From assembly GCA_963847625.1 (NCBI GenBank), contig CAWKAR010000025.1:83651-147650 (forward strand): a stretch of DNA of 64,000 nucleotides, in the 5' to 3' direction. The position numbers were made by a program, and so were the translations under genes. Positions 1 to 57,269 of this stretch are shown piece by piece. Under the pieces are notes generated by a model, which worked only from the letters and a program-made list of their open reading frames with translations, made no database searches and was not told the DNA's origin. This DNA is from a candidate division FCPU426 bacterium. Lineage in GTDB: Bacteria; Oederibacteriota; Muellerivitia; Muellerivitales; Muellerivitaceae. Position 1 is the stretch's first letter. Each line of letters begins with the position of its first letter.

Positions 1-900
1 TTAAAGTTTCTTGAATAAAAACCAGTGGTTTTTCCGGCTCCAATAAGTGGTATAAGCTTTTCCCTTAATCAATCTCTCATCCAATGTTCCAAAATATCGC
101 GAATCCAAGCTATTATCACGGTTGTCCCTAAGCATGTAGTAATTTCCTGGACCAACTGTAACCGGGCCAAAATTGTCCCTCTGGGTGTTAAGAGAATCGC
201 CCCTTGGAATAATGAGTGGATCGACATGTTTCACATAAGGCTCGGTTTGTTTTTGCCCATTAATATAAAGGAACTTATTTTTCATTTCCAAAACATCCCC
301 TGGTGTGCCTAAGCAACGCTTCATATAAATCTTACTTTGATCCGGGGGATAAAGAAAAATCACAATATCTCCTTTTTTCGGTTTGTGAATCTGAAAAAAC
401 CTTGGGGTTTTATTGAAAAATGAGTGCCCATAGAAAAATTGGTTAGAAATAAGAAAATCCCCTGGCATCAAAGTATCTTCCATGGAACCAGAAGGCATAC
501 TATATGGGCAAATAAAAAAACTCATGCCTATTCGGATAGGGAAAATGCTTAAAAAGGTTATGCCTATAAAACTAAGAAAAATGAAACAAGTATCTTTGAA
601 ACTTTGATTCAATCTTTTTTTTACAACGAACCATCCAACCGCAATGGGCAAAATAATACCAACGAACTGAAACCAAAATTCGTTTTTCCATCCAAGCCCA
701 ACGAGTAAAGAAGCTACCAATACTGCCGGTAACAATACGGCTAACTGTGACAGCATGATAAATAATCCGGTTTTATAATATTCCATAAAAGAGAAACCAA
801 GTTTTTTGCTAAAAGTCCGAAAGATGTATGCAAAAAGGGCAGGTGGAATTGTATAAACAAGCAAAAGTATGATTAAAAAATATCCAATTAATAAACCCAT
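1..900 (-). CDS. lepB: Signal peptidase I (S26 family) with extended N-terminal multi-TM region
   Basis: Catalytic motifs SMPSGSMEDTL (Ser box) and GDNRDNSLDSRYFG; complete ORF ending in a TAA stop at window positions 1-3. Confidence 0.85.
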   Translation of the reverse strand: MGLLIGYFLIILLLVYTIPPALFAYIFRTFSKKLGFSFMEYYKTGLFIMLSQLAVLLPAVLVASLLVGLGWKNEFWFQFVGIILPIAVGWFVVKKRLNQSFKDTCFIFLSFIGITFLSIFPIRIGMSFFICPYSMPSGSMEDTLMPGDFLISNQFFYGHSFFNKTPRFFQIHKPKKGDIVIFLYPPDQSKIYMKRCLGTPGDVLEMKNKFLYINGQKQTEPYVKHVDPLIIPRGDSLNTQRDNFGPVTVGPGNYYMLRDNRDNSLDSRYFGTLDERLIKGKAYTTYWSRKNHWFLFKKL

Positions 901-939: not shown

Positions 940-1659
940 TTAACGCAAAGCAAACTCGGGCATTTGATCCCAAGTCCGGCCCTCTAATAACCGCCCATTC
1001 TTCTTTTTCCAAACACCGCCCCATTGCTTAAAGAAAAAAGGGACTTTGTCTTTTTTGCACTGCTTGCGAATATCAATGACCCATTCTTTTTCCATGGGCC
1101 GCGCCCCCGGGCCCGATTCACCCCCTACGATGGCCCAGTGAATGCCTTTCAGCTTCAAATTGGGGATAGGGCCCAATAAAGGTTCCAATGATAGGAATTT
1201 GATTTTGGCTTTTGATTTTCTTAATGAATCAATGCGGTAGGTAAATTTATCGGATTCCACGCTAACACCCATCCAAATATTGGGCGTCCATTTCAGGTTC
1301 GGACTTAGTTTTTCCAGTCGGTCGGCCCTCTTCGTTAATACCTGGAATTGATGCCAATGGGCTTGATTCATCACCTCGAAAATCTGCTTAACGAATTTCA
1401 ACGGGATATCTTGGTGAAAAAGGTCGGACATTGAATTGACGAAGATGGTTCTCGGTTCTTTCCATGCGAGCGGTAATTTCAAGCGTTCGGGCCAGATTTT
1501 AAGGTCAAAACCCTGCTCATAGGGATGGTTCGGGGTTCCCCGCCATCTTTCCGCGAACCGTTCCGCGTAGCAATTCGCGCATCCGGCGCTCACCTTGTGG
1601 CACCCGGTTACCGGATTCCAGGTTGAATCGGTCCATTCGATTGTGGAGTTCTCAGCCAT
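940..1659 (-). CDS. Gp37/Gp68 family protein (DUF5131, PF07505-like)
   Basis: N-terminus IEWTDSTWNPVTGCHKVSAGCANCYAERF is the hallmark start of the phage Gp37/Gp68 family; 239 aa. Confidence 0.8.
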   Translation of the reverse strand: MAENSTIEWTDSTWNPVTGCHKVSAGCANCYAERFAERWRGTPNHPYEQGFDLKIWPERLKLPLAWKEPRTIFVNSMSDLFHQDIPLKFVKQIFEVMNQAHWHQFQVLTKRADRLEKLSPNLKWTPNIWMGVSVESDKFTYRIDSLRKSKAKIKFLSLEPLLGPIPNLKLKGIHWAIVGGESGPGARPMEKEWVIDIRKQCKKDKVPFFFKQWGGVWKKKNGRLLEGRTWDQMPEFALR

Positions 1660-1771
1660 TAACCTTTTCCTTTATCTCTGTACTTATTAAATATTTCCTC
1701 AACAATTTTAGCCCCAACTGGTTTATGTGAGGCAAAAAACAAATAATAAACTGTTGCTCCTTTAGAATTCC

Positions 1772-2512
1772 TCATTGGTAATGGTTCAGGGCATAAGAGA
1801 AACCTCCAACTTCTTTTAATCTTTTCCTGAACGCCTCAACAATAGCATCATTAGCATCAGGCACTTTTTTCATCCAACCAAACAAGGTGCTTTGAGTTTC
1901 ATATACTGCTTTTTTCCAAGAATCATTGCCCCAAAAAGCATCCATTCTTGCGGCTTGTGAAGGTTCTACCATTTCTGGATTTTTCCAAAGAACATTTTGA
2001 TTCATATCCATTACTGGGAAATTAAGAAAGATCTCGATACTCTTCATTTGTCCAGCTTTATGAATCACATCCCATTTTAAATGAAGACCATAGGGGTCAA
2101 GTAGGCATAAGCCACGACGATAATCTTCGAAACGGATTTTAGGGAAAATTTCATTTAATAAAATTTCATTACAATTACCTTCAAATACTGAAACGTTAGT
2201 ATTTTCTCGGGTTAATAGTTTCAGCAATTTGAATTTATCTTTATTTATGTCGATAAGATAAAGCTTTTTAAAAGGGGGTTCTATATTCAAGGCATTTAAA
2301 GGACTACCAGGTATAAACTTTCCGCTTTCTCTTGAGAGATGGACCCCTGCACCCGCAAAAGCATCTAGATAGGCATGTTCTAGGTTTTTTTGGGAAGTTA
2401 ATATCTTCGAATATGCCGCAGCGTAATCTTTAACAATATCGAGTTTGATTTCGGACCAATAATTAATCGTGTCAAAATTAAGCATCCCGAGTTCCATAAG
2501 TAAGTGCAACAC
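1772..2512 (-). CDS. TcmP-like 'three-Cys-motif partner' protein, the usual partner of DUF5131; native start probably Met at 2485
   Basis: About 250 aa with DAFAGAG and LLDPYG motifs, immediately upstream of and co-oriented with the DUF5131 gene. The first 9 codons of the called ORF lie inside the IS30 copy. Confidence 0.55.
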   Translation of the reverse strand: MLHLLMELGMLNFDTINYWSEIKLDIVKDYAAAYSKILTSQKNLEHAYLDAFAGAGVHLSRESGKFIPGSPLNALNIEPPFKKLYLIDINKDKFKLLKLLTRENTNVSVFEGNCNEILLNEIFPKIRFEDYRRGLCLLDPYGLHLKWDVIHKAGQMKSIEIFLNFPVMDMNQNVLWKNPEMVEPSQAARMDAFWGNDSWKKAVYETQSTLFGWMKKVPDANDAIVEAFRKRLKEVGGFSYALNHYQ

Positions 2513-3540
2513 TTAGTGTCTGAAGAAGGCCGCATGAATAGGATATGCGGCTATGAAAAAGAAATACAAGCATTTAAGCGTTGAAGAAAGAGATCATTTA
2601 TCCGTCTTGAAAGGAAAGGGTCTTAGCCTTCGAGCAATTTCACGCGCCTTGAAGAGGTCTCCTTCCACCCTCTCCAGGGAACTCAAGCGCAATGCTCCCC
2701 CTATCCGTTCTGGTTATTATCTTTCTCATCGAGCCCATCAACGGTATGTTGACCGCAACCAACAACGAGCACGCCGTTTACGCCTGAAAACAAAACGAAT
2801 TCGTGCCTACGTCCGTCGTCAATTGAAACGAGGCTGGTCTCCAGAACTCATTTCAGGTCGATTAGGTCACCTACGGCCTAAGCAAACCATTGGTCCTGAA
2901 GCTATCTATCAGTGGGTTTATGCTGAAGCCACTGAGCTGATTCCTTGCCTAGTTCGACACCACCGGCGACGATTCTCATTTGGCCATAGCCGTAAGCACG
3001 CCAAAAACCATATCCCAGGCCGTGTTTCCATCGATAAGCGCTCCGAGATCGCCAATCAACGCAAGCAATTCGGCCATTGGGAAACCGACACCATGGTCTC
3101 TCGTCAGAGTAAAGTGGCTATGCGGGCTCTCGTCGAGCGTCAAAGCCGTTTTTCCAAGTTGGGAAAGCTCAAACGAAAGACCGCTCGCCAAATGAGTCAT
3201 AGCCTCAACCGCGCTTTATGCCGCTTCCCTCAAGACGCCCGCCTGAGTCTGACCTATGACAACGGAACCGAAAACACCAACCACTTGGAAACCAACCACG
3301 TGCTTGGTACAAAATCCTTTTTCTGCGCCCCTTTCCACAGTTGGGAAAAAGGTACGGTGGAAAATACTATCGGTCTTGTCCGCCGCCATTTGCCTAAAAA
3401 GACTGATCTTGCTAAAGTGTCCTTCAAAGAATTCAGGACCATAGAAAGATGGCTCAATAACAGGCCCAGGAAATGTTTGGGCTTTAAAACTCCGGCGGAA
3501 GTCTTCCGGCGAAGTGTTGCACTTACTCCGTGAATTCGGC
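2486..3540 (+). mobile_element. IS30-family insertion sequence, copy A (1055 bp)
   Basis: DNA-identical to 47459-48513 in inverted orientation; imperfect terminal inverted repeats containing agtaagtgcaacactt; single transposase ORF. Confidence 0.85.
2553..3533 (+). CDS. IS30 family transposase (HTH + DDE)
   Basis: 326 aa; N-terminal HTH (LSLRAISRALKRSPSTLSRELKRN); DDE core with HWETDTMV; identical to the protein at 47466-48446. Confidence 0.9.
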   Translation: MKKKYKHLSVEERDHLSVLKGKGLSLRAISRALKRSPSTLSRELKRNAPPIRSGYYLSHRAHQRYVDRNQQRARRLRLKTKRIRAYVRRQLKRGWSPELISGRLGHLRPKQTIGPEAIYQWVYAEATELIPCLVRHHRRRFSFGHSRKHAKNHIPGRVSIDKRSEIANQRKQFGHWETDTMVSRQSKVAMRALVERQSRFSKLGKLKRKTARQMSHSLNRALCRFPQDARLSLTYDNGTENTNHLETNHVLGTKSFFCAPFHSWEKGTVENTIGLVRRHLPKKTDLAKVSFKEFRTIERWLNNRPRKCLGFKTPAEVFRRSVALTP

Positions 3541-3566: not shown

Positions 3567-3953
3567 TCAATTTTTTACCTCTTCTGGATTCTGTTTCGGG
3601 TTTTCCAATGATTTTTTAGATGGGCTTGCATCAGAATTAATAATAGAAATAGGAGGTAATTTTCCCTTACTTTGAGCCGCTACTGCCAAAATATTCAACA
3701 ATCTTTTATTATCACTATTTTGTAATTTATTTTCTCCCTTTGTTCGATCATCTTCACATTTTTCCACAATAGCTATTGAGGTATTTATGAAGATTGCAAC
3801 GGCAAAAAATACCCACCCAATTAGAGCAACACTTCCAAAAATATTTTTCCAAATAGTTTTTAACCTGTACTTTTGTCTGTTTTCAATTTTACCTGCCACA
3901 AAACTAAGAAATGGGGAAAGGAAAGATTTTATTATTACAATAAAATATCCCAT
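3567..3953 (-). CDS. Hypothetical membrane protein
   Basis: 128-aa ORF with two hydrophobic segments; no recognisable family. Confidence 0.3.
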   Translation of the reverse strand: MGYFIVIIKSFLSPFLSFVAGKIENRQKYRLKTIWKNIFGSVALIGWVFFAVAIFINTSIAIVEKCEDDRTKGENKLQNSDNKRLLNILAVAAQSKGKLPPISIINSDASPSKKSLENPKQNPEEVKN

Positions 3954-4293
3954 GTGAAAAACTCCAATGTGAATTTAAACCTTTCTCTGGTTTCTGTAAC
4001 TATAAGCTTTATTTTGAACATAAATTACTAAATTTGATACTGGCCCACACTGGTTAAAAGATAGAACTTTCTAAGTTTTATTTTAGACACCGCAAAATTA
4101 ACCAATTATATTTTCCATTTTAATTTCCTTGGCAACAATATCAACATGATCACCTTCTATAAACTCTTTTTCTGAACAACATTTTTTAAACTTTCATGTG
4201 TGGGCATTCTTCCGAATCAATATTTTTACCGCAAATGTTACATTCCACACGATCTATTATTGACCTTCCCCCAATGTTTGATCCAAATTTAAG

Positions 4294-5124
4294 TTAGTTA
4301 AGGCCCAACTTTTCGGCCTTTGCTTCCATTGGGGTTTTTCCCCCCAAACTGCTGTGCGGTCTCTGCCAGTTATACACCTGCCTCCACCAATCCACGACTA
4401 CCTGGGCCTCCGCTTTTGAAAGAAAAATTTCTTGGTTCAGGCACTCATCCCTAAACTTTCCGTTGAAACTTTCGATGAATCCATTCTGCCATGGACTCCC
4501 TGGTTCGATATATAGCACCTCTACGCCCTTCTCCTCAAGCCAGTTCCTCAGTTCTTTCGCCACGAACTCTGGCCCGTTGTCCACCCGCAGGCACTTTGGT
4601 GTCCCGTACTCCGTCATCAACTCGTCCAGCGTCTCCAGCACGTCCCGGCTTCTCATTCGCTTCTCCGCCCGGATCTCCAAGCATTCCCTAAATCCTTCAT
4701 CCAACACCGTCAAAAACTTCACCTTTCCCCCGAACCATGTCAGGTCATGCACGAAGTCCATCGTCCACACCTCGTTGGAACCCAAAGCCGGGTGGGGCCT
4801 TCTCCATTCCGTCGGAACCCTCTTCTTCCTGGGTCTCCTGCGCGGTAATTGAAGCCCTGCTACCTGGTAGAGCCTCTCCACCCGCTTGTGATTCACATCA
4901 AGGCCTCTGCGTTCCAACATCCACAACATCCGAGGGCTTCCGAAACGTCGGTTTCTTTGCGCTAACTTAACCATTTCCTGCAGGATCACCTGGTTCAACG
5001 GATCTTCTGGCTGGGCCTCATATCGAAAACTCGATCGATTTACCCCAAGAACATCACAGGCTCGTCTTTCCGGTACTTCCTGAGCCTTCAGGGCTTCCAC
5101 CATGCCTTTTTGCTCCTCGATCAA
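4294..5124 (-). CDS. IS3 family transposase OrfB (rve DDE integrase), expressed by -1 frameshift from OrfA
   Basis: 276 aa with integrase core YIEPGSPWQNGFIESFNGKFRDECL. Confidence 0.85.
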   Translation of the reverse strand: MIEEQKGMVEALKAQEVPERRACDVLGVNRSSFRYEAQPEDPLNQVILQEMVKLAQRNRRFGSPRMLWMLERRGLDVNHKRVERLYQVAGLQLPRRRPRKKRVPTEWRRPHPALGSNEVWTMDFVHDLTWFGGKVKFLTVLDEGFRECLEIRAEKRMRSRDVLETLDELMTEYGTPKCLRVDNGPEFVAKELRNWLEEKGVEVLYIEPGSPWQNGFIESFNGKFRDECLNQEIFLSKAEAQVVVDWWRQVYNWQRPHSSLGGKTPMEAKAEKLGLN

Positions 5125-5390
5125 TACCCCTTTTTTTTTATGTGCTCTTGGAGAACCTGAATAGCCAGGGCCTGATCACCCGCTAACTGCTTGAGTTTCC
5201 GGTTTTCTTCTTCCAGCTGTTTGATGCGGTGGACTTCGGAAACTCCAAGGCTTCCGTACATGCGTTTCCAGCGGTAGTAAGTCTGCTCGGAAATGCCATG
5301 CTTTCGGAGAACTTCCTCAACGGCGGGAGCTTTCTCCGCCTCGCGGAGAATAGCCACTATCTGCTCAGATAAAAACCGTTTCTTTGCCAT
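5121..5390 (-). CDS. IS3 family transposase OrfA (HTH/leucine zipper)
   Basis: 89 aa, MAKKRFLSEQIVAILREAE... typical IS3 OrfA; ends in the A9G slippery run (plus strand T9 at 5131-5139). Confidence 0.85.
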   Translation of the reverse strand: MAKKRFLSEQIVAILREAEKAPAVEEVLRKHGISEQTYYRWKRMYGSLGVSEVHRIKQLEEENRKLKQLAGDQALAIQVLQEHIKKKGY

Positions 5391-5437
5391 CTTTCCCCTC
5401 CCGATCTATAATCCAAAACTAACATATTTTTGGATCA

Positions 5438-6494
5438 GTTTTCGGGGGAAAGGTCAACCTTAAACTCCCAAGGCCATAGAACGCGCAAAGGAAGAAAATG
5501 GGAAACCAACGCCATCCATTATATTTTGAGAAATGAAACTTATACTGGGGTTTTGATCTTTAATAGGGCTCATAAAAATTCAGTAAAACCCATAGAACGT
5601 CCTGAAAGCGAAACAATCCGCATTGAAAATGCCCACCCCGCCATTATTGACAGAAAAACTTTTCTTTCTGCCCAGTTTTTCATAAAGCTAAGAAGTCCTA
5701 AGGTTGTTCACCCGCGAACTATCCATAGCGACTATATTCTAAGCAGTTTCCTTTTATGTGGAGAATGCGGTTCTCATATGGTTGGAACTACCGCCAAGGG
5801 TTCTAAATTTTTTTATTATTCCTGCCGGAATCACTTAAGAAGGGGTTCTCATGGATGTGGGCAAAAATCTATCAACAAGGCCAAACTTGAAGAAATGGTT
5901 TTCACGCAACTTAGAAACCGCATTTTGACTGAAGAAAATATCTCAGAGTTAGTCAAACTGATTAATAAAGACCTTTCAGCTTATAAACGCGATTATTCAA
6001 ATCTTTTGAAAGAAAATGATTCCCGAATTTTAAAAGCCAGGGAAAGCCTTCAAAAACTTTACTACGCCCTTGAAACTGGAAAGCTTGACCTTGATGACCT
6101 TGCCCCAAGAATCAAAGAATTGCGTTCTCAAATTTCCCAATTAGAGCAGGAAAAAACCAAGATCGAATCAGAGGCAAATGAGCCAACCTTGGAAATAAAC
6201 GCCTCGGAAATCGGCCCTTACGTTGAAGATTTGCGGGGACTATTGGAGAAAGGCACCATTACAAAGCGGAAAGGTTTCTTAAAGTCTTTTATAAAGCAAA
6301 TTGAATATAGCCACCAAAAAGGCGGCTCTATTGAATACACCATTCCTCTTGTGAAAAAACCTAATAACGAATTATCAAATATTGAAGTTCTGCCTATTAA
6401 CCAAAATGGCGGGGTTGACGGGGCTAGAACACGCTTTCTCGCACCTGACAAACAAAATTTTCAGATGAACCAACTTCTTATTCCTGGGTTCTGA
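5438..6494 (+). pseudogene. Large serine recombinase remnant lacking the N-terminal resolvase catalytic domain
   Basis: Recombinase domain (ILRNETYTGVLIFNR), zinc ribbon (CGECGSHM...YYSCRNH...HGCG) and coiled-coil, but no catalytic Ser domain. The reconstructed pre-insertion frame begins MFSGERST at the IS3 insertion site. Confidence 0.65.
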
Positions 6495-6612: not shown

Positions 6613-8001
6613 TTAGATGTTCCCAAGATCGATATCCACCCACGAGGGCGTCGGGGTGACCGTCGGCTGGGGCGAAGAAGCCTTTTGGGTTTCGGGGGAT
6701 CCCCTCAAAAAGACCGCGAAATAACCCGCTTCCCCATTCGAGAAAGCCTCGGCGGGATAATTGGTCTGGATTCCGCTGTTCACCGCCTTGGAAATCCACG
6801 CAAGCGACGACCGGATGGCGTCGAGCCGGTAAAAGTTGGGGATCAAGTCGAAGGACCGCTTCACATAATCCTTGTAGGACTTAAATTGGTAAGGCCCGGC
6901 GGGATCCGCGAAGGAGGCCGCAATGGGGGCATGGATATCCAGTAGCATCATATTCTTGATCCCCATTTCCCGGCTGAGGGCCGCCAGAACGGAGGGGGGC
7001 GTATACAGGGTCCAAATCACCCCAAAGCGGTGGTGTTTGTCGGTGAATAGGTAGGACCGGGCCACGTCGTCATAAAAGGAACAAAAAGCATTGGGATACT
7101 CGTCCGGGCCCGGCTTGCCGTTTTCCACCACCATGAAGCGGTTTTGAACGAAGGTTTTTATTTTTTTCTTATCCGGCAATTTTCGGTAGGTGCCCAGGGC
7201 CATGTGTCCGTCCTGGTACAAGGTGAAGGTGGCCATCTCGGGCTGGGGCGGAAGGAAGGTCCGGGAATCAAAACGGAACCCGGCATAACGCATTTGTTTT
7301 TCCGGCACGCCCCAATTGACCACGTTGTCGACGCGGTCGAAGATGCCGTTGAGGATGCCCAGGAGCCCGGTGGAGTCCTGGATCAAGGCGTAATCGGTTT
7401 TCCCCCCATTCCTTTCCTCCCGGGTCGCCATAGGAAGCCATTCCCCCATGTGGGTCCGGTCCCCGCCCTTGAACTGGATTTTCCCGGGGTAATAAAGGCA
7501 CCGGGCCTGCGCCTGGTCGAAGGAAAGGTAAAAAACCATGGCCCTCTCCCGCATCAGGCCCCCATTGTCCAAAAGAAGCTTTTTTCCCCTGGGACCCAAG
7601 CCCTTAAAGCCCTTGACCCTCGCGAGAAACCGCTTGAAATACTTTTTGCCCCCCGCGTGATACTTGACCCGAAACCCGGCGTAAACGGCGGTCGCGGCGG
7701 GGCTGTTGGCCTTGAAATCCACGGCGCATGGGGCCGCGAGCGGGAACCCTCTCTTGTTCGCCCGGGCCTGCCGTGCCCAATCCACGTGAAGGATGAAGGG
7801 CCGCTCCCTCCTGGTCAAACGCCTGGGATGGGGAATGCGGATTTTGGAAAGTCCCTCGTAAAGCCACTCCCCGGCTTTCTTGTAAAAATAGCCCCGGAAT
7901 TCCGAAACTTCTTTCGCGCTTGCTTTCCCGGCAAGGAATTGGATGAGGCAAAACACCAGTGTCAAAAGGGCAAAGATGAAAATGATTTTATTTTTTTTCA
8001 T
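6613..8001 (-). CDS. Secreted hypothetical protein, last gene of the A2M-LDT-PBP1C operon
   Basis: Signal peptide MKKNKIIFIFALLTLVFCLIQFLAGKASA (alternative upstream start at 8025); about 62% GC; overlaps the pbpC stop by 14 bp; no family recognised. Confidence 0.5.
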   Translation of the reverse strand: MKKNKIIFIFALLTLVFCLIQFLAGKASAKEVSEFRGYFYKKAGEWLYEGLSKIRIPHPRRLTRRERPFILHVDWARQARANKRGFPLAAPCAVDFKANSPAATAVYAGFRVKYHAGGKKYFKRFLARVKGFKGLGPRGKKLLLDNGGLMRERAMVFYLSFDQAQARCLYYPGKIQFKGGDRTHMGEWLPMATREERNGGKTDYALIQDSTGLLGILNGIFDRVDNVVNWGVPEKQMRYAGFRFDSRTFLPPQPEMATFTLYQDGHMALGTYRKLPDKKKIKTFVQNRFMVVENGKPGPDEYPNAFCSFYDDVARSYLFTDKHHRFGVIWTLYTPPSVLAALSREMGIKNMMLLDIHAPIAASFADPAGPYQFKSYKDYVKRSFDLIPNFYRLDAIRSSLAWISKAVNSGIQTNYPAEAFSNGEAGYFAVFLRGSPETQKASSPQPTVTPTPSWVDIDLGNI

Positions 8002-10357
8002 TCTCGATTTTCTTGTCGTAAACAAGGATATTCACTTTGTCCGCGCGGCCCTGGGAATCCAGCACCGATACTTCCCATTTCCCCTGTTCCGGGCTCCAGA
8101 AGAAAAGCTTATCCGGCTTTCCTTGCGCGATGAGCCGGCCATTCACGAACCAGTAAACCTGGTCCACGTCGGGGCCGGCCTGGACCGATAACGTCATCCG
8201 CTGGCTTTCCAGGGGTATCCCCTGCTGGATCTCGTATTTCCCCTCGGATTTGGGCGATTGGATATGGGGCGTGAAGCGGGAGAAGAAATAAGCGCAATCC
8301 GGATTATGCCGGGGGATGGCCTCGAATTTTTTCCCGTGGCTCCTGAGATACCGCGTCACGTCCGGTGGCCAGATCTCGAAAATTTTGGAGTAGTATTCCT
8401 CTGGCTTGCCCGTCATGCAATAACGGCAAACTTCCTTTCCGTCTTTTTTCCTGATCCAAACCCTTCGGTGGACCTGGCAGGGATGGTTGTCGCTGACGGC
8501 CGGGATGAACATATCCTCGATCACGTCCTTGCAATCGTCTCCGGCCGGCTGGCCCGAGAGGGCGCATATTTTGCGGAATTGGACTCCCGGCGGCCTCTGG
8601 AACCAGGAGTCATTGGAGCGGGTCAAGGCGTTGAAGAGATTGATGACCACCGGGGCCGCGGCGTCGTGGCCGATCAAGGCGGGAGACCCCTGGTTATCCG
8701 TGTTGCCGAGCCAGACCCCGATGGTGTAATCCGGGTTATAGCCGACGCACCAGGCGTCCCGGTGGCCGAAGGAGGTGCCGGTTTTAAAGGCCACCTTTCC
8801 GCGGGTGGGTGAAAATTCCCAGGAAGCGGGAATATCCGTTCTTTCCACCTTGGCCAGCATTTCGGAAATCATGTAGCTGGATTCCCGGGAAAGCACTTCC
8901 TTTCCCTTCTCCGGGCCTTGGGTTTCATCCTCAAAAAATCTCAGGCTTCTCATCTTCCCGCCGTTGGCCAGGGCCGCGTAAATCCGGACCATTTCCTCCA
9001 CCGTCATGGGATAGGCCCCTAAAACCACCGACAGACCCGGTTCCAACTGGCCCCTTTCCCGCCCGATACAGCCGGCTTCCTTGATCCAAAATTCCAGGCC
9101 GTCGTTTCCTATGGATTCCAGGCTTGATTCCAACCCCACCGCGGGAATGTTCAAGGAGCGGGCCAAGGCGTCTTCCGCCGGAATGAGCCCCCCGTACTTC
9201 CCCTCGTAATTGGCCGGTTTAAAGCCGCCGTAATCGCGCGGGATATCGAAAAGCGTGGTCTTGGGTGTGATCAACCCGTGGTCCATCGCCAAGCCATACA
9301 GGAAAGGTTTCAAGGCCGATCCCGGGGAGCGGGGAATGTTGGCGCCGTTTACCTGCCCACCCCTGGGGTCGTGGAAATCCGGGCTTCCCACGTAAGCCAC
9401 CACTTTCATCGTGTGGTTGTCCACCATGATGACCGCGCCGTTATGGACCCCCTGGTTTCTGATGGGCGCTATGGCGCCTTCCAGCATTTTCAAGGCCAAT
9501 CCCTGTAAATTGGGTTGGAGGGCCAGCTGGACCACTCCCGGGGCATGGCTGGATAGATGGGCCGCTCGAGCCACCAAATGGGGAGCCGGATTGGGATTCA
9601 AGTACCGGCCTTTGGGCAGGATGGAATGGAAAGCTTCCTCCGCCTCGATTTGGGGTGGCTTCACGATGGGAAGGATTTGCCCAAGGACCTTGTCCCTTCC
9701 CTCCCTCGCCTTTTCGGGGAACCGGTCGGGACGCCGCGCCGCGGGCGACCGGGGAAGGCTGATCAAAAGCGCGGTTTCACCCCAGGAAAGGAGCTTGGCC
9801 GGCTTGCCGAAATAAAGAAGCGACGCCGCACCCACCCCCTCGATGTTGCCCCCCATGGGAACGCTGTTCAGGTAGAACTCGAGGATCTGTTTCTTGGAAT
9901 AGCGGGCCTCCAACTGCATGGCCCGGAAAGTCTCGATTCCCTTGGCCCAGAAGGTCCGGGGCCTGCGGTCCATCAGCTTGGCCACCTGCATGGTAATGGT
10001 GGAAGCCCCCGAGAGGATTTTATGGCGGGTCAAATTCAGGACGAGGGCCCGGACCAATGCCGCCGGATTCACCCCGTAATGCCAGTAAAACCACCGGTCC
10101 TCGTAGGCCATAAAACCCCGGATGACCTGGGGTGAAATTTCATCCAGTTTCAAGGGAAGGCGGTACTTGCCACTTTTGGAAAGGGTGAGCCGCAATAGGC
10201 TTCCGTCGGAGGCCAGGTAGGCCGTGGAATAGTCGCCGTGAAGTTTCTTAACCGGAAGGGGCACAAGACGGAGAAGGACGTAAAACCCGGCCAGGCACAA
10301 CAAAAAACGGAGGATGAACCGTTTGTGATTGCTAAAGGGCCATTTCATAGTTTGCAT
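7988..10357 (-). CDS. pbpC: Penicillin-binding protein 1C (transglycosylase/transpeptidase with PBP1C C-terminal domain)
   Basis: 789 aa; N-terminal TM anchor; GT51 motifs (RFYWHYGVNP, GASTITMQ); transpeptidase SxxK/KTG (AFKTGTS); C-terminal BiPBP_C-like domain. Confidence 0.85.
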   Translation of the reverse strand: MQTMKWPFSNHKRFILRFLLCLAGFYVLLRLVPLPVKKLHGDYSTAYLASDGSLLRLTLSKSGKYRLPLKLDEISPQVIRGFMAYEDRWFYWHYGVNPAALVRALVLNLTRHKILSGASTITMQVAKLMDRRPRTFWAKGIETFRAMQLEARYSKKQILEFYLNSVPMGGNIEGVGAASLLYFGKPAKLLSWGETALLISLPRSPAARRPDRFPEKAREGRDKVLGQILPIVKPPQIEAEEAFHSILPKGRYLNPNPAPHLVARAAHLSSHAPGVVQLALQPNLQGLALKMLEGAIAPIRNQGVHNGAVIMVDNHTMKVVAYVGSPDFHDPRGGQVNGANIPRSPGSALKPFLYGLAMDHGLITPKTTLFDIPRDYGGFKPANYEGKYGGLIPAEDALARSLNIPAVGLESSLESIGNDGLEFWIKEAGCIGRERGQLEPGLSVVLGAYPMTVEEMVRIYAALANGGKMRSLRFFEDETQGPEKGKEVLSRESSYMISEMLAKVERTDIPASWEFSPTRGKVAFKTGTSFGHRDAWCVGYNPDYTIGVWLGNTDNQGSPALIGHDAAAPVVINLFNALTRSNDSWFQRPPGVQFRKICALSGQPAGDDCKDVIEDMFIPAVSDNHPCQVHRRVWIRKKDGKEVCRYCMTGKPEEYYSKIFEIWPPDVTRYLRSHGKKFEAIPRHNPDCAYFFSRFTPHIQSPKSEGKYEIQQGIPLESQRMTLSVQAGPDVDQVYWFVNGRLIAQGKPDKLFFWSPEQGKWEVSVLDSQGRADKVNILVYDKKIENEKK

Positions 10358-11203: not shown

Positions 11204-14200
11204 TTAATATTTCGCGGGAGCAATATTAAGCGTTTGGCCCTCGTTGGATCGCCCGAAGATTTCAGGGTCGTACATGGCTTCGGCCTCCAAACCAGGCACC
11301 TGGAACGATCCGGGCGTGACCGCCCGGACGCTGTAGGAGAAGGTCTGGTCCCCGTCCACGTCCTTCGAGAAGAGAAGAACCCGGTCATCCCTGAAATCCT
11401 GGAAGACCGGCGAGAAGCTGCATTCCGGCTCGAACGAAAGGTTGCCCCGCGAGGAAAGGCGCGGATTGTCCACCTCGAACCCGGCCGGCAGGAGATCCAC
11501 CACCACCAGGTTGTCCAGCGGCTTGGTGCACTTCACGCGCAAGGTCACCACCACCAATTGGCCCTGGGAAATCGACCCCAGGTTGATGGTATTCCCGTTC
11601 TCATCCCTGTACTCGCGGCTGACGGTCAGGCCATTCGCGACCGATTCCTTTTCCGATTTCAGCTTGGTGCCCTCGGCCATGAGATGGTAATAAAGGTCGC
11701 GGTCGCCGGTATTCTTCAGGTCAACGTCCTTGCCCGAAATCTTCTCGTCCTTCACCACCGCCGTCTCCCCGCTCAATTCGGCGGGGGCTTCCCCCTTCAC
11801 GGACCATTGGGCGCTCAAGGGATAGTTCTGGGTGGTGGCCCGGACCGCCTTCCCAACAGCCATGAAACAGAGGGCGTCCTCCTGGGTCGTGCCGTACCAG
11901 CCGTGCCCGAATTCCTTCAGCTTCTTGCCGAACTCGATGATGAGCTTGGGGATCTCCGGGTTCTTGGGGTCCGCCTCGGTCATGGCCAAAAGGTAAAGGG
12001 CCATTTCCCGGTTGGGGGAGAACCAATCCCCGTTCATCAACCGGGCCAGGCTGGTGGGAAGGTAATGCGCGGGAAGAAGGGATAGGGCGGTCGTGCGATC
12101 GCCCAGCGCGGAATAGGCCCGGGACAGGTAACAGCGCTCGCTCAACCGGCGCGCCTTCGGGTCCTGCATCTGGTCCTTCATGGCGGCCATCGACTCGGGA
12201 TCGGGCCGGTCGGCCAGGACTTTCAGGTAAAGCACGTAGGCGCTGTCCCCGATCTCGACGTTTTGCTTTCGGCGGTCCAGCCTCCCACCCCCTTGCCGGT
12301 GACCTTGATGGCCCCAAGCCGGTTCATGATCCTATCCAGGACATTCTCGTTGACCTGGTAGCCCTGCTTTTTCGCCGTGAGCAGGAATTCGGAGACGTAA
12401 TTGGACAAGTATTCCCCGCCGCCCTCCTCCTGGCCTGGCCAGAGCGCGAAGTCCCCGTCGGACAACTGCATCTTGCCCAGGTCGTCAATGGCGTCCTGCA
12501 CGTACATTTCCACCGCGTTGGCCCTTCCGCTGAAACGCCCCGTCAAAAGGCCCATATCCTTGAAGAAAAGAAGAGGGAAAGCCTGTGAGGTCCTCTGCTC
12601 GGCACAGCCATAGGGGTAATGGATGAGGTAATCCATGCTCCCCAGGAACGTCAACAAGGGGCTGGAAGAAACCGTCATGCGGACCTTTTGTCCTTGCCGG
12701 ATGAAGCCGCCGGGAACCGACAGGACCTGGGTCCCGCCCGCCCCCAACTGGCCGAAGCTGATTTGCGTCGTCAAGGGATTGCCGGGCCTCACCGCCAGCT
12801 CGGTTTCCACGTCGAAATCGTTTCCATCCTCATCCGTGGCGGTCACCTTGAAATGCGCCACGCCAGCGTCCATTTGGGCCTTGGCGTGGAACAGGATCTG
12901 TTTTTGCCCCTCCTCGCCCAGGCTGATATCCTGTTTTTTCTCGCCGTCGACCGCGACGGGACCGCTGGCGGAGAGGCTGACCTTGATGCTCTGGGGTTTC
13001 TTCGTGTTGTTATAGACCAGGACCGGCATGTCAATGTGGTCCCCGGGCGCGAGAAACCGGGGAAAGGACGGCTCCACCACCACCGGATCCGCCACCTTCA
13101 CGTGGAAGGCGGAAGCCCCGAATTTATTCGCCTGCACTCCCAGGGCCATGACCCTTACTTCCCCGTGGAACTTGTCCGTCGGGAAGTGGTAGCTGACCTT
13201 CCCCTCCTTGTCCGCCGTCAGGATGCCGGAGAAGAGGGCGAAGGATTTCACCCGTTTGGCTTCGATGGGGTTCAAATGGCGGAATTGGAAGGATTCACCC
13301 TCGTCCCCGCCCACCGCGTCCTTGCGGTCCAGGTCGGGAAGGATGTCCTCGAACAAGCTCAAGGTGGAGGTCGTGAGGCCCCGCTTGCGGTAGAAATACT
13401 TGAAGGGGTCGGGCGTGGTGAAAGCGATGATCTGGAGGATTCCCTCGTCCACCGCGGCCAGGACCACGCTGGCCCCCGGCGTGCCGGTGGACAGGTTCAC
13501 GTCGATGCCGTCCTTGGACTTTACGGACTCGGGCGCTTCCCACTTGAAGTCGATCTCATGGCTGGTGGTGTCCATCGCCAGGGTCGCGATCCCGAAGGAA
13601 GCCATCGGCATGGTCCTTAATTCCTCATTGGGCTTGCGCACCAGGAGCCCCACCACGTAGGCGTTGGGCATGTAGGCGGTCTCGACCGGGGGAAGGCTCA
13701 GCACGTTGAGCCCCGCCGCAACCGGCACCGTCGAGGTGTAAAAAACCCTCTCCCGTTCGATGGAAAGGATCAGCCTTCCGGCGAAGGGCGCGCGCACTTC
13801 CAGCTTGGGGATCTCGCCGGACTGGTATTGGGTCTTGTCGAGGTTGAGGGACAGCTTGTCCGGCTCGCCCAGGTCGGCGGATTCCTGCTGGTTCTCCTCT
13901 TTTTCCTCGGGTCCGGACACCGCCACCATGACGGAACTGCGCATGGACTCCTCGTTGCCCAGGTAGATGGTGTATTCCCCCGGCTTATCCGGCGTGAAGG
14001 TGTAGGAACCCTTTCCGTCCACGTTGACTTCTTTGCCGTCCACCACCTGCTCGTAATAGGCCGACTCGTAGCCGCGTCCGGACCATCCGCTCCGCCTGAA
14101 AATGGAATACCAGACTTTGCGCTTGACGAGAAGGATGGCTTTTTCCACCTTGGTCGGGTCGCCGTCCGGGGTGATGGCCACGTACTTGATGTGGACTTCC

Positions 14201-17200
14201 TTATTGGGGGCCGATTCCTTACCTTCCTCGCACTTGAGGCCCAGGTAATAGGGATAGCGGTGGACCCGGATGGCGGCGTTGGCGCCGACGGGCCTCCCCC
14301 CGGTGTCCAACACCTCGGCATAGACCTCAGCCTGGAGCATGGAAGGAGGAAGCATGGAGATGGGCACGGGTAATTGCACGTCAAAATTGCCCGCCGCGTC
14401 CGTCGACCCGTCCGGGACCTTCAAACTTTCGCCCGTGAACTGCCGGGTGGGGTCGGAAAAATGGTAGCTTTTCCATTTCTTGTCCGTGAATTCAATCGGG
14501 CTCAATTGGACGGCGGTTCGCACCTTCAGGCTCACGCCCGGCGCCCCGAAGAGCTGGCGCACCGCGACCCGGAAGGAGAGTTGCTCCCCGGGATTGGCGG
14601 TTTTCTTGGCGGGACGCACCTCGACCTTGATCTTGTTGGGGATGAATTCCTCCACCTTAATGGAGGTGGACGCCAGGTGGACCCCGTTCTCCAGTCCCAG
14701 CTCGACGTTCAGCATGCCGGTGGTGATGTCCTCCTTAATGGGAAAATTGAAGGTCGCCATGCCGTAGTCATGGAGTTTGGCGGTGAGTTTGGCCACCTGG
14801 TTCCCGTTTTCATCCTTGATGACGAGGTTCACGGGAAGGTCCTCGGGGATATCCAGGTCCGCCCGCCTCACGACCGCCGTGAAATTGGCCTTGTCCCCGG
14901 GGCGGTAAAGGCCCCGGTCCGAGGTCAGGAACGCGTCCCATCCGGTGGATTGGAAAGGATCCCCGCTCACGTCGAAGCGCGATTGGTTCAAGGCCGGCTG
15001 GTCCAGGCGGAGGTAGGACCAATCGTCCCCCAATTGGGCCACGACGACATAGGCGTTGAAATGGTAGGGGTTGTTCTTCCAGTCCTTGAACCAGACCCGT
15101 CCCTCGGGATCCGTTTCCTTTTCCTGGATGACCTGGTTAGTGTCGGAAATCAGCTGTAATTTCACCCCAACCGCCGGGGTCAGCCTGGAGATGGAAAGCA
15201 CCTGCACCAAAAGGTCGTCGCCCGAGTACTTCAGCATCATGCCCAGGTCGGTGCAAAGGAAGGAACGGGAGTCCCGTCCGCCGCCGTTGGCTCCGTTCAG
15301 GGAAACCACGAATAGCCCCTTATAAGGCTGGCTGTGCCATTGGCTGAAATCCAGGTCCGTTTCCGTTTCCTGGTTGATCTGCCCTTCGTTCACCTTCACG
15401 TTTCCGCCCCAGACATGGGCGCCCAACCCCGCGGTCGAGCCAGAATCGGACTGGTAGTTATTCTCGCTGGGTTCGTCCCCTTCACCCTCATCCTCGTCCT
15501 CTTCCTGTTGCCGCTGGAAATAAGCGCGGCGCTGGGGCCGGCGGTAAGAGTGCCGGTAGTAGTAGTTGGGGTAACTGCGCCAGTTCTTCAGGAAATCGAC
15601 GATGTTGTTGCGGAACACTTTTTCGACGCCGACGGAATAATTGTCCAGGTTCATGGTTTTAACCGAGACAATCTTTTTTCCCTCCAGAGGGATCAACCGC
15701 CCGTTATCGCCGAAACGCACGTAGGGCTCGATATCTTCCAGACGGATATCCTGGTCGCTGGCATGCTCCAGGATTTCCCCGGAAATGGCGCGCAGGCCCT
15801 CCTTCACGTGGATTTTGTAGTTGATGTTGGGTTGGAAATCCGCTTTCAAGACGGCGTAGCAATATTCCGTATCCACCTTGAAGGGAATCGCCGGTTCGAT
15901 GGACACGTTGTTGCGCACTTGGGAGGAAGAAGCCGGAAGCGTGAACAGGATGGAGATCAGCGTGTTTCCCGGAACATGGTGGAGCTTGATCCCCTCCACC
16001 AGCATCTTGGGCTTGGCGGGAAGGGTGATGGTGCTTTGGTACTTGTCGGCCAGGGGCTTCCCGCAATCCACGCAGGACAAGCCCGCCGCCACGGTTACCG
16101 TCAGGGTCTGGGGTTCGGTTTCACGCACCAGCCCCCCCGCCTTGAAGAAAAACCGCGTGGGAAGGGTTCCCTGTTCCAGCTCGTAGTTCAGGGAGCTTCC
16201 CGCCCGGGATACGGAAAGGCTCTGTTTGAGCAGGTTCATGTCCACCGGATAGTTGAACTCGATCTCGCCCACCAGCTCTTTTTCCGTTCCCTTGATGAGG
16301 TCGTAGGTATAGAAAAGCCGGCTGGAAACCACCTTCATGGCTTCGGTCGAAAAAGTGGTATTGGAGCTTTTTTCCAGGAAAAATTGTTTCGAGGAAAGCT
16401 TACCCGAGACGTTCAAGTGCACCTGGTAAGTGGTGGCGGGTTTCAGGGGAGCCGCGGGGGTGAAAACCAGGGTCGTGGAATCCTCCAGGCGGCTGGTTCC
16501 GGGCAGGGGGGGTGTAATCTCGAACGCGGAGTCCAAGGCGCTGATGACTTGGACGTCCCCGGAGAATTTGGCCCGGATGACCGTATTGGCCGAGGTCACC
16601 ATTCCCCGGGGGGTAAAACTGATGATATGGGTGGTGAAAGTATTATAGATCAAAAGATAAATCAGCCAGGCCGCGGCCAGGCACGCCAATATTAGGGCGG
16701 CCTTCCGGGCCAGGGGTTTCTTGGATAACTTCAATACGCTTTCCCCGCCTTTGGCTCCTTTTTGCTTGAGGAATCGGGCCGCCTTCTGGAAAAAAGGGCT
16801 TTGCCGCAGAATTTTCCATTTGGAACGCCAATCCAGGTCCGGCAATCCGTCCTTCTTGGCGATTTTTTCCGAAATTCCATAAGACTCGTAAAGACGGGTC
16901 AGATAGATAATCAATACTTGCAGGGACCAAGCCGGGTTTCTTTTGAGGAGGGCGAAAGGGATGGGGAGAAGGGCGTAGAGCCAGATCCAAGCCCGGAGGT
17001 TGCGGTGCTTCGTTTCCCGCATCCTTTCCCAAAACACCAGGAACAGCCCGGAAAGGATGAGGTGCAGCGCCAGCATCCAATTGTTTCTCTCGAAAAAATA
17101 GGGGGAATAAAAAGGGTTCATGAGGAACGTCAACCCGCCTACGGTGTAAAAAGCGAGAGCGCGGATGAAGGTTTGGGGTAATTTCAGGATTTGGGATCGG

Positions 17201-18186
17201 ACCTGGGCGGTTAAAACCGTCAGGACGAGGATAACCATCGGGATGATCAGGGAACCGGTCTGGTTTTGAATGTAAATAAATCCCAAGAGCGAACCCAGGC
17301 TCAGGAAAACTTCCTTCGCGTGGGGTTTCAGCCAGGGATTCCAGCCCCAGAGCAAACCCAAAACCAGGATTTGGAAGGGCCAGCCGAAATTACCATGGAA
17401 GAAGTAATAATATGGAAGCATCGGGACAACGGCGAAAAGCGATAGATAAAGCCGCCCCCGGGTGGCATTCGCTTCCTTCAACTTTTCCCACAAAAGAAAA
17501 ACCAGGGCCGAGAGCAGGAAATGGTGGATCAGGACGACCGGACCCCACCCTTTAATGACCTGTTGAACCCCGCGGACCGTTTCAAAGATGGGAAGTTCCG
17601 GCCAGTAGCGGTAGATCCAGTCCGTGAAATAAAACAGGACAAAGGCTTTTAGGATTTCGGGGTCCCGGCGGAATAAGAACCGGCGCAGCAGGGGGGAGAC
17701 GCCCCAGAAAATGATGGAAATCCAGTAAACGGGGGGAAGCCCCATGAGGCAAACCGCGAAGGCGGCCGCCGTGAATACCGGCGGAAGAATATTGGAGTGG
17801 AATTTTTCGAGCGCCCGGATTTTTTTCAAATCATCCCGGACCATCTCCCATCCCAAAAGAATCGTGGAATACACCACCAGGGCCAGCGCCGTGATCCAGA
17901 CAATCTTCAGGTGGGAGCTGCTCGTCGGGACCTTATCGAAAAATTTCGGGGTCAGAAAGGAAAAGATCATCATGAGGGAAAAACCCTCAACCGCCCGGAA
18001 AGGATACTTCAGGTAAATCTTGCGCAGGAGGCCGACCGCCATGAACAACGGCAGGAACAGCCACAAATTTTTATTTTGGATCAGGAGGACGGCATTGGGG
18101 TGGTTCATCCAATTGGGAATGATTGCGACAAGGGCGATTAGAACGGTGATTCCAAACCAGGCGTTTAATATTTTCCTGGGAATCAT
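11204..18186 (-). CDS. Alpha-2-macroglobulin family protein (YfhM-like) fused to an N-terminal polytopic membrane domain of about 500 aa; frame broken once near 12289-12293
   Basis: Thioester motif GCAEQ near residue 1850; C-terminal thioester-domain remainder and receptor-binding-like domain continue in ORF 11204-12235 (QNVEIGDSAYVLYLKVLADRP after a 1-nt shift in the C5/G5 run); about 12-14 predicted TM helices in the first 500 aa. Confidence 0.8.
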
Positions 18187-46005: not shown

Positions 46006-46488
46006 ATGAAACAGAAATGGTCCAAAGAAAAAATTGTTGAAACTATAAAGGAATTGCAAAAACAAAACATTGATATATCAGCAAGCAATATTTCCAAGAA
46101 CTATATCCCACTCTTTACCGCTGCTTGCTCCAGACGGTATTTCGCTAGTTGGGCCAATGCAATCAAAGCTGCAGGCATTGATTACAATTTAATATTGGAA
46201 GCAGGAAAAACGCGCCGTAGAAATAAATTAACGAAATGGTCAAAAGATCAAGTTCTTGAACTTGTTAAATCGGCTGATTCTAAAAATTTATTAACAACTT
46301 ACCGGGATCGTCTTGCTCTTTATTCTGCAGCTCGTCGGGAATTTGGCAGTTGGAAACAAGCGTTAGAAGCTGCAGGTTATCGTCTGACCAAGGGATCACA
46401 TAAGAATTCTAATCAAATCTTTAAAAAAGAAGAACAACCCGGTTCAATGACAAATCCCAATTTTTCGAAGGCTTCTCAAACGATTTAA
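46006..46488 (+). CDS. Hypothetical protein with two tandem copies of a module of about 65 aa
   Basis: WSKEKIVETIKEL...RRYFASWANAIKAAG and WSKDQVLELVKSA...RREFGSWKQALEAAG; strong SD AGGAG; sits in an AT-rich island. Confidence 0.45.
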   Translation: MKQKWSKEKIVETIKELQKQNIDISASNISKNYIPLFTAACSRRYFASWANAIKAAGIDYNLILEAGKTRRRNKLTKWSKDQVLELVKSADSKNLLTTYRDRLALYSAARREFGSWKQALEAAGYRLTKGSHKNSNQIFKKEEQPGSMTNPNFSKASQTI

Positions 46489-50605: not shown

Positions 50606-51091
50606 CTAGACAGAAATAGCTGTTACTTCTTTCTGCTTTTTCTTTTCGTTTCCTTTAGAGGAAACTTCTGTTGAAGAGACTGTTTCTTTTTTACCTTTTT
50701 TGTCCGCCTTAGTTTCTTTTGTTATTTCAACAATAGGTCGATCAACCAATTCCAAAAAAACCATATCCGCACCATCCCCAGCCCTAAAACCCAACTTAAG
50801 GATCCTAGTATAGCCCCCTTTTCTTTCCGCATAACGGTAAACCAGGGTTTTATACAATTTATTAACAACATCTCTTTCACGTACAAACCCTAATACTCTT
50901 CGCTTTGAAGCCAAAGTTTCCTTCTTGGCAAAAGTTATCATTTTTTCAGCATAGCGTCGAACTTCTTTTGCCCTTATTTTGGTTGTTTTAATTCGTTCAT
51001 GTTTAAGAAGCGAAGTAACCATGTTCCTAATTAAGGCCCTACGGTGAGCTGGTTGTACACCTAAATGTCCATGATGAGCACTATGTCTCAT
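50606..51091 (-). CDS. rplQ: 50S ribosomal protein L17 with Lys-rich C-terminal extension
   Basis: MRHSAHHGHLGV...IKTTKIRAKEVRRYAEKMIT; about 45 extra C-terminal residues rich in K/E. Confidence 0.85.
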   Translation of the reverse strand: MRHSAHHGHLGVQPAHRRALIRNMVTSLLKHERIKTTKIRAKEVRRYAEKMITFAKKETLASKRRVLGFVRERDVVNKLYKTLVYRYAERKGGYTRILKLGFRAGDGADMVFLELVDRPIVEITKETKADKKGKKETVSSTEVSSKGNEKKKQKEVTAISV

Positions 51092-51115
51092 TTTTTCTCC
51101 TAGATTCGCTTCAGT

Positions 51116-52129: not shown

Positions 52130-52176
52130 AATGCCTCCCGCAAGAATAGTCCCATGGGACTTTTTTTAGTTACCAA

Positions 52177-52797: not shown

Positions 52798-52808
52798 TCA
52801 ATTCTCCT

Positions 52809-53252: not shown

Positions 53253-53291
53253 TTATTTCTCCTCAATTAAAATTTAATGTAAAAAGTTAAT

Positions 53292-53672: not shown

Positions 53673-53688
53673 ATGTATTTACTCCTTT

Positions 53689-53802
53689 TTAACCTTGCCG
53701 TTGTTTATGTTTCGGATTAGTGCATATGACCCTAATAACACGTTTACGTCGAATAACTTTGCACTTGTCGCAAATGGGCTTAACAGATGATCGAACTTTC
53801 AT
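53689..53802 (-). CDS. rpmJ: 50S ribosomal protein L36 (zinc-binding)
   Basis: Not in the supplied ORF track (37 aa): [37 protein letters not shown]. Confidence 0.85.
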
Positions 53803-53832
53803 TCTCTAGCCTTCCTTTTTTCTCTACAAAAT

Positions 53833-57256: not shown

Positions 57257-57269
57257 TTTTTCAACCTTC

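Follow-up and report, generated by a model that had tools for sequence, protein, structure and literature searches.

Does the TcmP-DUF5131 gene pair that adjoins an insertion sequence (IS) in the genome of a candidate division FCPU426 bacterium still constitute a working module, and what might its intact relatives do? The pair lies near the start of a 64,000-nucleotide (nt) stretch of contig CAWKAR010000025.1 (assembly GCA_963847625.1, positions 83,651 to 147,650 of the forward strand; hereafter the window), and it had been described in an initial annotation as the surviving module of a degraded integrated element, presumably transcribed from a promoter carried by an IS30 copy. We observed that the TcmP gene is frameshifted, hence the pair is not intact here, and we propose, with a probability of roughly 0.65, that the locus is a decaying copy of a TcmP-DUF5131 cassette that is on record as the untested PADLOC candidate PDC-M41. 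By itself the locus is a minor one, a catalogued cassette being inactivated by a frameshift and an IS amid several IS elements; the TcmP subfamily merits attention, as it is present in at least 579 species-level genomes, almost always with a highly conserved partner of the radical S-adenosylmethionine (SAM) type. The features on which this reading depends are the following:

940-1659, minus strand: DUF5131 (Gp37/Gp68) gene, intact, 239 amino acids (aa), recognized by a PF07505 profile match
1659-2485, minus strand: TcmP pseudogene at its full extent, delimited by TIGR04474, alignment and three-frame translation
1789-1792, minus strand: frameshift site, where one nt has been lost from or beside a run of C (TAT GC- CCT GAA), located by aligning the DNA with that of L005, the cassette closest in sequence
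2487-3539, plus strand: IS30-family IS, delimited by its transposase gene (2553-3533), inverted repeats and an identical second copy
47460-48512, minus strand: second IS30 copy, identical at 1053 of 1053 nt by blastn

A frameshift displaces the conserved C-terminus of TcmP

The gene calls of the initial annotation (the pair, the IS30 element and the neighboring lepB) are borne out by the listing of open reading frames (ORFs) and by profile searches, and PF07505 and TIGR04474 both score above their cutoffs for the two family assignments. However, while the TIGR04474 match of the frame at 1772-2485 is strong (166.9 bits against a cutoff of 53), it covers only profile positions 1-226 of 263; PADLOC's PDC-M41A model matches the same protein with E 2.6e-57. 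This frame opens at the ATG at 2485, which is the native start given that its four nearest homologues share the opening residues M-L/V-N/K-F-D-T-I-N-Y-W, and it ends at 1772 after 237 aa. All 119 TcmP homologues listed, the window's own entry aside, exceed this length; 117 of them are 269-300 aa long, most having 274-278 aa. Alignment with the homologues showed that the conserved C-terminus (PEPIPMRNSKGATVYYLFFAS...) is missing from the 237-aa frame, and three-frame translation recovered it (PEPLPMRNSKGATVYYLFFAS...KYRDKGKG and a stop) in another frame at about 1662-1790, uninterrupted by stops. The C-terminal PEPIPMRN...YYLFFA block is accordingly out of frame in the window, with about 44 conserved codons displaced to the frame that reaches the TAA at 1659-1661. 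Because the conserved C-terminus lies there in another frame, the apparent 112-nt intergenic gap between the two genes is in fact coding sequence; for purposes of annotation, a layout comprising a 237-aa TcmP and a 112-nt gap is the mark of a frameshifted gene rather than of an operon with a spacer.

DNA alignment with the L005 cassette (78.7% identical) places the lesion at a single absent base, the window reading TATGC-CCTGAA where L005 reads TATGTGCCGGAG. Once restored, TcmP comprises 275 codons and its TAA overlaps the ATG of DUF5131 as TAATG, a layout that is found elsewhere too. A separately assembled Logan contig (L001) is identical to the window over all 2512 nt compared, the frameshift site included, and on these alignments the 1-nt deletion is very probably genuine. 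We considered programmed frameshifting and rejected it, as no slippery heptamer of the form X XXY YYZ is visible at the site. Mapped onto the predicted structure of a complete homologue (pLDDT 89.7), the segment that is lost takes in the strands 237-240 and 246-254 and the helix 257-270, and it bears the invariant residues P236, P238, M239, N241, Y248, Y249, F251 and A253. Because two β-strands, the last helix and many invariant residues are gone, the truncated product is, going by this model, unlikely to fold.

An IS30 element separates TcmP from its former upstream region

The element upstream of TcmP encodes a transposase on the plus strand that is matched by NF033563 (236.7 bits against a cutoff of 80) and is bounded by inverted repeats of 28 nt (2487-2514 and 3512-3539) that are 82% complementary. 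The bases at 2486 and 3540 are possibly part of it, and the 100% identical second copy fixes its length at 1053-1055 bp. In its transposase family, its 28-nt terminal inverted repeats, its size of about 1.05 kb and the presence of several identical copies it conforms to the IS30 family; unlike the second copy, the copy next to TcmP lacks the 2-4 bp target duplication. Under all boundary models the flanks of this first copy read CAT versus TAT, whereas the second copy shows the arrangement ATA(C)-IS-ATAC, with the duplication on both sides. The flanking bases suggest either a secondary rearrangement at the first copy or a duplication that has since mutated. The surroundings of the second copy also contain a fragment of a DDE_Tnp_1 transposase (49223-49816) and, at 46006-46488, a gene for an HNH-repeat protein.

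The left end of the IS30 element, which we trace from 2487, does abut the native methionine codon of TcmP, as first described, and the gene is thereby cut off from its former upstream region. The nine IS-encoded codons also exist in a mechanical sense, the ORF extending to a GTG at 2512 within the IS; when the IS is taken out, an in-frame TAG stands ahead of the TcmP ATG. The proposed IS-borne promoter fared worse. The IS is oriented opposite to TcmP, its transposase gene being transcribed away from it, and a scan of its left end with the σ70 consensus found no outward promoter-like hexamer pair on the minus strand of 2487-2552, the scanned region as a whole holding 7 promoter-like sites against the 6.8 expected from shuffling. 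Because TcmP is frameshifted, is cut off by the IS30 element and has lost its coupling to DUF5131, the cassette is most likely being lost from this genome and its activity here gone.

Predicted folds and motifs of DUF5131 and TcmP

The DUF5131 protein is matched by PF07505 across practically its whole length (E 1.8e-99; 332.6 bits against a gathering threshold of 28.9), its residues 4-234 spanning profile positions 1-243 of 243, and it further matches PDC-M41B of PADLOC (E 2.7e-118) and phrog_2045. In an alignment of 50 homologues with 65-94% identity, a cysteine triad (C20, C27 and C30; Cx6CxxC) and a GGESG motif at residues 179-183 are invariant, and the window protein keeps every invariant residue in a whole reading frame. 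RadicalSAM.org lists DUF5131 as Megacluster-5-2, beside spore photoproduct lyase in 5-3 (PMC9477430). TIGR04471, the radical SAM family model named "radical SAM mobile pair protein A", reaches 81.7 bits (E 5.1e-23), under its cutoff of 355, so that our protein is not a member of this family. Strands and helices alternate in the predicted structure (pLDDT 81.3), and the best matches that Foldseek returned for it, all of them weak with no E below 0.009, are to TIM barrels, spore photoproduct lyase, lipoyl synthase and NifB. The model, a partial TIM barrel, can be aligned over most of its length with spore photoproduct lyase (PDB 4fhg; TMq 0.54) and has in common with this enzyme and the small radical-SAM enzymes of Megacluster-5 the three cysteines and the GGE motif, although radical-SAM enzymes typically display a CX3CX2C arrangement in place of Cx6CxxC. 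Taking motifs, profiles and classification together, DUF5131 is plausibly a member of the radical-SAM superfamily.

For TcmP, the initial annotation had pointed to motifs resembling those of methyltransferases and had called for a prediction of a Rossmann-type fold; both are supported by what we found. The top PDB matches of the TcmP model in Foldseek are structures of Escherichia coli RlmJ, the methyltransferase that forms m6A2030 in 23S rRNA (PDB 6qdx, 4blu), with E 4.5e-8 and TM 0.55-0.60, and a profile-profile comparison with hhalign links the two families at E 3.2e-5. In the latter alignment the TcmP segment IPGSPLNAL pairs with YPGSPLIAR, and RRGLCLLDP-YGLH pairs with RRGLILIDPPYEMK of RlmJ, such that LLDP-YG stands opposite IDPPYE. 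TcmP accordingly combines a putative SAM-binding motif I, DAFAGAG, with PGSP and with a motif IV, DP-Y, that is one residue under DPPY. The fold, the PGSP motif and the motif IV region are thus held in common with RlmJ; RlmJ differs in having only 13-16% identity to TcmP, a full-length DPPY and no radical-SAM-type partner of the kind that TcmP always has. The Pfam RlmJ model (PF04378) is touched by 16 of 63 TcmP family members at E up to 1, the best reaching 4.8e-6; the window TcmP protein has no Pfam match, falling short of the PF04378 threshold. Searched by sequence against PDB chains, neither the DUF5131 nor the TcmP protein found a match. By fold prediction, then, TcmP is an RlmJ-like protein with a class I (Rossmann-type) methyltransferase fold that stands outside the RlmJ family proper.

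Distribution and contexts of the cassette

In a scan that took one genome per species we recovered at least 579 genomes with the window's TcmP subfamily, distributed across Nitrospirota, Chloroflexota, Acidobacteriota, Verrucomicrobiota, Planctomycetota and others, and fetched 80 of the loci. DUF5131 follows the TcmP match at a distance of 3-20 nt in 77 of the 80, which upholds the description of the pair as a widely conserved two-gene module; of the three exceptions, one is interrupted by the end of its contig, another has 747 nt between the genes, and in the third the genes converge. Beyond the two genes themselves the fetched loci have no conserved neighbor in common, and the DNA similarity between the window and L005 is confined to exactly the two genes (1543 nt, 78.7%). 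Across phyla the identity amounts to 65-70% for DUF5131 and about 60% for TcmP. The G+C content of the cassette lies below that of its flanks, by a mean of 9.7 points for TcmP and 4.6 points for DUF5131 (56 loci). From gene order and the overlapping stop and start codons, the intact cassette is predicted to be a translationally coupled operon of TcmP followed by DUF5131.

Its contexts are varied, comprising chromosomes, plasmids and prophages. The phage ancestry that had been proposed for the pair is supported for DUF5131, with matches in 180 of 50,697 phage records, and hardly for TcmP, with TcmP-like sequences in 5. In Gordonia phage BaxterFox both genes are located between the integrase and the immunity repressor. 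The DUF5131 frame of this phage (L095, 4001-4738, plus strand) is unannotated, the minus-strand genes 39, 40 and 41 having been annotated over it. On the Sinorhizobium meliloti plasmid pSymA (L097, 4337-9998) Hna (PADLOC PDC-S28) and TcmP (PDC-M41A) follow one another on one strand, while a PDC-M30A gene and DUF5131 occupy the opposite strand and converge on TcmP, which places DUF5131 near two types of partner; the TcmP gene of pSymA is co-induced with Hna, a validated defense gene. A family scan of the neighbors within three genes of the pair, based on 23 loci, yielded two phage-type integrases and two type III restriction-modification methyltransferases; these counts do not support a pair that travels with integrases or defense islands, most neighbors being ordinary.

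The two subunits differ in their variability: DUF5131 proteins 79-95% identical to that of the window are paired with TcmP relatives that share just 24-27% identity with the subfamily of the window. This suggests a conserved catalytic subunit combined with a fast-changing specificity subunit, a split that is directly testable. In four such loci (L088, L090, L091 and L092) with DUF5131 identities of 79-91% and TcmP-family partners at 24-27%, the partners keep motif I, PGSP and DP(Y/F), and the pattern suggests either partner shuffling or rapid divergence of one subunit. Two syntenic loci, L002 (9285-10729) and L088 (7127-8741), which share RecO and an Rrf2-suf operon, encode DUF5131 proteins 95% and 91% identical to that of the window; the partner in L088 is a divergent TcmP-like protein of 287 aa, whereas its place in L002 is taken by a FitA-like/PIN toxin-antitoxin pair, with no TcmP remnant. 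In L002 (6350-8884), L092 (3095-5356) and L088 (4550-6979), whose DUF5131 proteins are the nearest to that of the window, a protein of 753-844 aa is encoded a few genes from the pair; two of its three versions carry a ParB_N-type domain, and PADLOC has no match to it. In L005, near-identical genes for a 150-aa secreted protein (4006-4458 and 7205-7657) bracket a 3.2-kb block of TcmP, DUF5131 and a 364-aa gene, which seemingly lies inside a duplication.

A possible role in phage-host conflict

In PDC-M41, a PADLOC defense candidate, component A is TcmP and component B is DUF5131, and the candidate was inferred from copies situated inside BREX, DISARM or type I restriction-modification loci (Payne et al., bioRxiv 10.1101/2024.01.29.577857). 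The window pair strongly matches both models, and its genes are next to each other on one strand in the usual order of the subfamily; it differs in that TcmP is frameshifted and has an IS30 element at its 5' end, and in lying outside any BREX, DISARM or type I restriction-modification locus. The earlier suggestion of an anti-phage module had therefore already been anticipated by PADLOC, as a prediction, and both components stand side by side in the window, but component A is not intact here. A second candidate, PDC-M30, combines the same or a related DUF5131-type enzyme (the window protein matches PDC-M30B with E 2e-115) with another partner, PDC-M30A, of about 370-415 aa, which has a weak match to TcmP (E 2.4e-7).

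For the intact cassette we tentatively posit a mechanism, at odds somewhat short of even, in which the two proteins form a two-enzyme complex. TcmP would confer target specificity by binding SAM together with a base flipped out of DNA or RNA; DUF5131, with a [4Fe-4S] cluster held by its Cx6CxxC cysteines, would carry out radical chemistry on that same nucleotide, and the resulting modification of nucleic acid might act in phage-host conflict. The origin of PDC-M41 in defense loci, the Hna neighbor on pSymA, the position in BaxterFox and the low G+C content of the cassette all speak for such a conflict context. A more specific version, in which the cassette is a two-enzyme system for base hypermodification of nucleic acids, TcmP selecting and flipping the base and DUF5131 modifying it to create a new epigenetic mark in phage-host conflict, is speculative and rather doubtful; were it correct, the window would contribute only a natural loss-of-function allele.

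The 6.6-kilobase segment around the pair

The pair lies within a segment of about 6.6 kb that contains further features:

1-900, minus strand: signal peptidase I paralogue (lepB-like), 299 aa, recognized by PF10502 (E 1.5e-39) and TIGR02227 (129.5 bits against a cutoff of 47)
3567-3953, minus strand: ORF128, a small hypothetical protein whose N-terminal half is hydrophobic, from the ORF list only
4260-5457, minus strand: IS3-family element inserted in a recombinase gene, with orfA at 5121-5390 and orfB at 4294-5124 (NF033516, 236.8 bits)
5458-6494, plus strand: C-terminal part, about 345 codons, of a large serine recombinase, recognized by PF07508 (Recombinase) and PF13408 (zinc ribbon)

The IS3 element and the recombinase remnant that had been reported upstream of the pair are both real, as judged from these profile matches and from the IS3 inverted repeats (4260-4299 and 5417-5457). 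No target-site duplication accompanies the IS3 element, its flanks reading TAT and ACC. A minus-strand frame at 4196-4260 that leads out of its left end encodes a zinc-ribbon-like CxxC...CxH peptide (IIDRVECNICGKNIDSEECPHMKV), which may be the tail of another gene severed by the IS. The recombinase ORF was called from 5430, inside the IS3 inverted repeat, and the actual remnant starts at 5458; it matches the phrog_95 integrase at profile positions 285-572 of 651. The missing N-terminal stretch of about 200 codons, catalytic domain included, was sought beyond the IS3 element by three-frame translation of 3941-4320, where no resolvase-like frame was found. The combination of IS elements without duplications and a truncated recombinase suggests IS-associated deletions rather than simple insertions.

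Contig L001 extends leftward from the window into UbiA and futalosine-pathway genes, and on it the G+C content falls from about 0.6 to about 0.4 at some 100 nt left of the window start, just past the lepB stop. It climbs again at about 6550, roughly 60 nt beyond the recombinase stop, so that the recombinase gene ends about 60 nt short of the right-hand compositional boundary and the composition of the segment is sharply unlike both immediate flanks. The G+C content at third codon positions (GC3) is 0.47-0.82 in core metabolic genes at 6.6-43 kb (PBP1C, alpha-2-macroglobulin, UbiD, LeuA and IlvB) and 0.24-0.34 in the ribosomal-protein, RpoA, SecY and Map genes at 50606-64000, as in lepB, TcmP and ORF128. 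As the ribosomal-protein operon of the window is equally low, G+C content alone is no proof that the segment is foreign, and we dropped the notion of a low-G+C island in a high-G+C genome as a stand-alone argument. The switch in GC3 near 43-44 kb, away from the second IS30 copy, means either that the genome is truly mosaic or that the contig was mis-joined.

Composition and the recombinase remnant together argue that the 6.6-kb segment is probably the remnant of an integrated element, which would be what was left over after IS-mediated deletions. The earlier notion of a degraded integrated element thus gains from the distinct composition, the truncated recombinase at the edge and the two ISs, and gains nothing from attachment (att) repeats or an empty site, neither of which was found.

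Alternative readings

Several points weigh against our reading, and they are best considered with the alternatives they serve. The pair might still be working, with the IS30 element providing a promoter and nine N-terminal codons and the frameshift being a sequencing or assembly error or else tolerated. The DUF5131 gene is indeed intact with all its invariant residues, the out-of-frame C-terminus of TcmP is stop-free, keeps its conserved residues and shows no further decay, and an ORF from the GTG at 2512 exists. The deletion, moreover, sits at a short C run and could be a homopolymer error of the consensus, a kind of mistake at which the split alpha-2-macroglobulin gene (11204-18186) hints by suggesting indel errors in the assembly, and L001 may come from the same reads as the window assembly. 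Against this, the frameshift site is identical in L001 despite its separate assembly, no X XXY YYZ sequence is at hand to restore the frame, and the minus strand of 2487-2552 offers no promoter-like hexamer pair, with the transposase transcribed away, even if a non-σ70 or weak outward promoter may reside inside the IS30 element; a working pair is therefore distinctly unlikely in our estimate. A different challenge concerns the segment, which may be native chromosome of a mosaic or mis-assembled genome on which the IS30 and IS3 elements and the recombinase fragment landed by chance. The ribosomal-protein, SecY and RpoA genes (50-64 kb) share its low GC3 (0.24-0.34), its ends show no att-like repeats beyond an 11-nt inverted match, a scan for tRNA genes found none, and a serine recombinase like that of the window is absent near the pair in the related loci compared, including all 80 genome loci. 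Neither of two metagenome scans with flank proteins recovered an empty site, the 470-aa right-flank protein finding no relative and the left-flank UbiA protein one relative at 37%, and exact look-ups of the recombinase remnant and IlvB found no independent contigs over the other junctions. A native segment would nevertheless have to accommodate the sharp G+C steps at about -100 and about 6550, the coincidence of the recombinase 3' end with the right-hand step, menaquinone-pathway genes of similar higher G+C on both sides and the reproduction of the left junction in L001, and we consider it doubtful. We hence continue to favor a decaying cassette within the remnant of an integrated element.

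With respect to function, the cassette might be a housekeeping pair that modifies rRNA or tRNA and whose presence here is unrelated to mobile DNA. The nearest solved fold is that of an rRNA methyltransferase, RlmJ, conservation across phyla is very high (65-70% for DUF5131, about 60% for TcmP), and in the 23 loci the neighbors up to three genes away from the pair are mainly ordinary, which is also a point against a role in conflict. Such a housekeeping role sits poorly, however, with the patchy distribution, the systematically AT-richer cassette, its occurrence on plasmids and in temperate phages, the swapping or replacement of partners, its dispensability in this genome and the derivation of the PADLOC candidate from defense-embedded copies, and we regard it as unlikely. 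Alternatively, the intact cassette could be an abortive-infection or effector-type defense in which DUF5131 makes a toxic or chain-terminating nucleotide in the manner of viperin and TcmP serves as sensor or regulator, as might be imagined from the match of both genes to PDC-M41, the pSymA pair beside the validated defense gene Hna and the phage pair within a prophage lysogeny module. Yet TcmP retains the catalytic-type motifs of a base-flipping methyltransferase, the subgroup listed beside DUF5131 is that of a DNA-acting enzyme, spore photoproduct lyase, and no nucleotide kinase or similar helper gene is conserved nearby, making this version quite improbable. The joint modification of a base by TcmP and DUF5131, which we prefer, has its own difficulties: the motif IV of TcmP is one residue short of DPPY, so that methyl transfer is not assured; the structural support for a radical-SAM fold in DUF5131 is weak (best Foldseek E 0.009), and its cysteine spacing departs from the canonical one. 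In the searchable literature we encountered no biochemical or phage-challenge result for the TcmP-DUF5131 family; queries for DUF5131, TcmP, PF07505, Gp37/Gp68 and PDC-M41 yielded listings and no functional study, and PDC-M41 went without mention in the papers searched.

Neighboring genes and minor observations

The lepB-like gene is situated directly downstream of DUF5131 and has the low G+C content of the segment (GC 0.36, GC3 0.36). Its product has an N-terminal extension of about 110 aa ahead of the S26 domain, and a homologue search found no close orthologue, the nearest full-length relative being 50% identical. With the IS30 element removed, ORF128 would stop 27 nt before the TcmP ATG, and its status as a gene is uncertain: it has no match in Pfam, NCBIfam or PHROG and a weak, chance-level one in PADLOC, and its exact sequence is absent from the protein collection searched. 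Farther to the right, beside the PBP1C gene (7988-10357), the alpha-2-macroglobulin gene looks split into an ORF of 1987 aa and one of 343 aa, the latter holding the C-terminal MG10 domain in another frame, which possibly reflects either a real pseudogene or an indel in the assembly.

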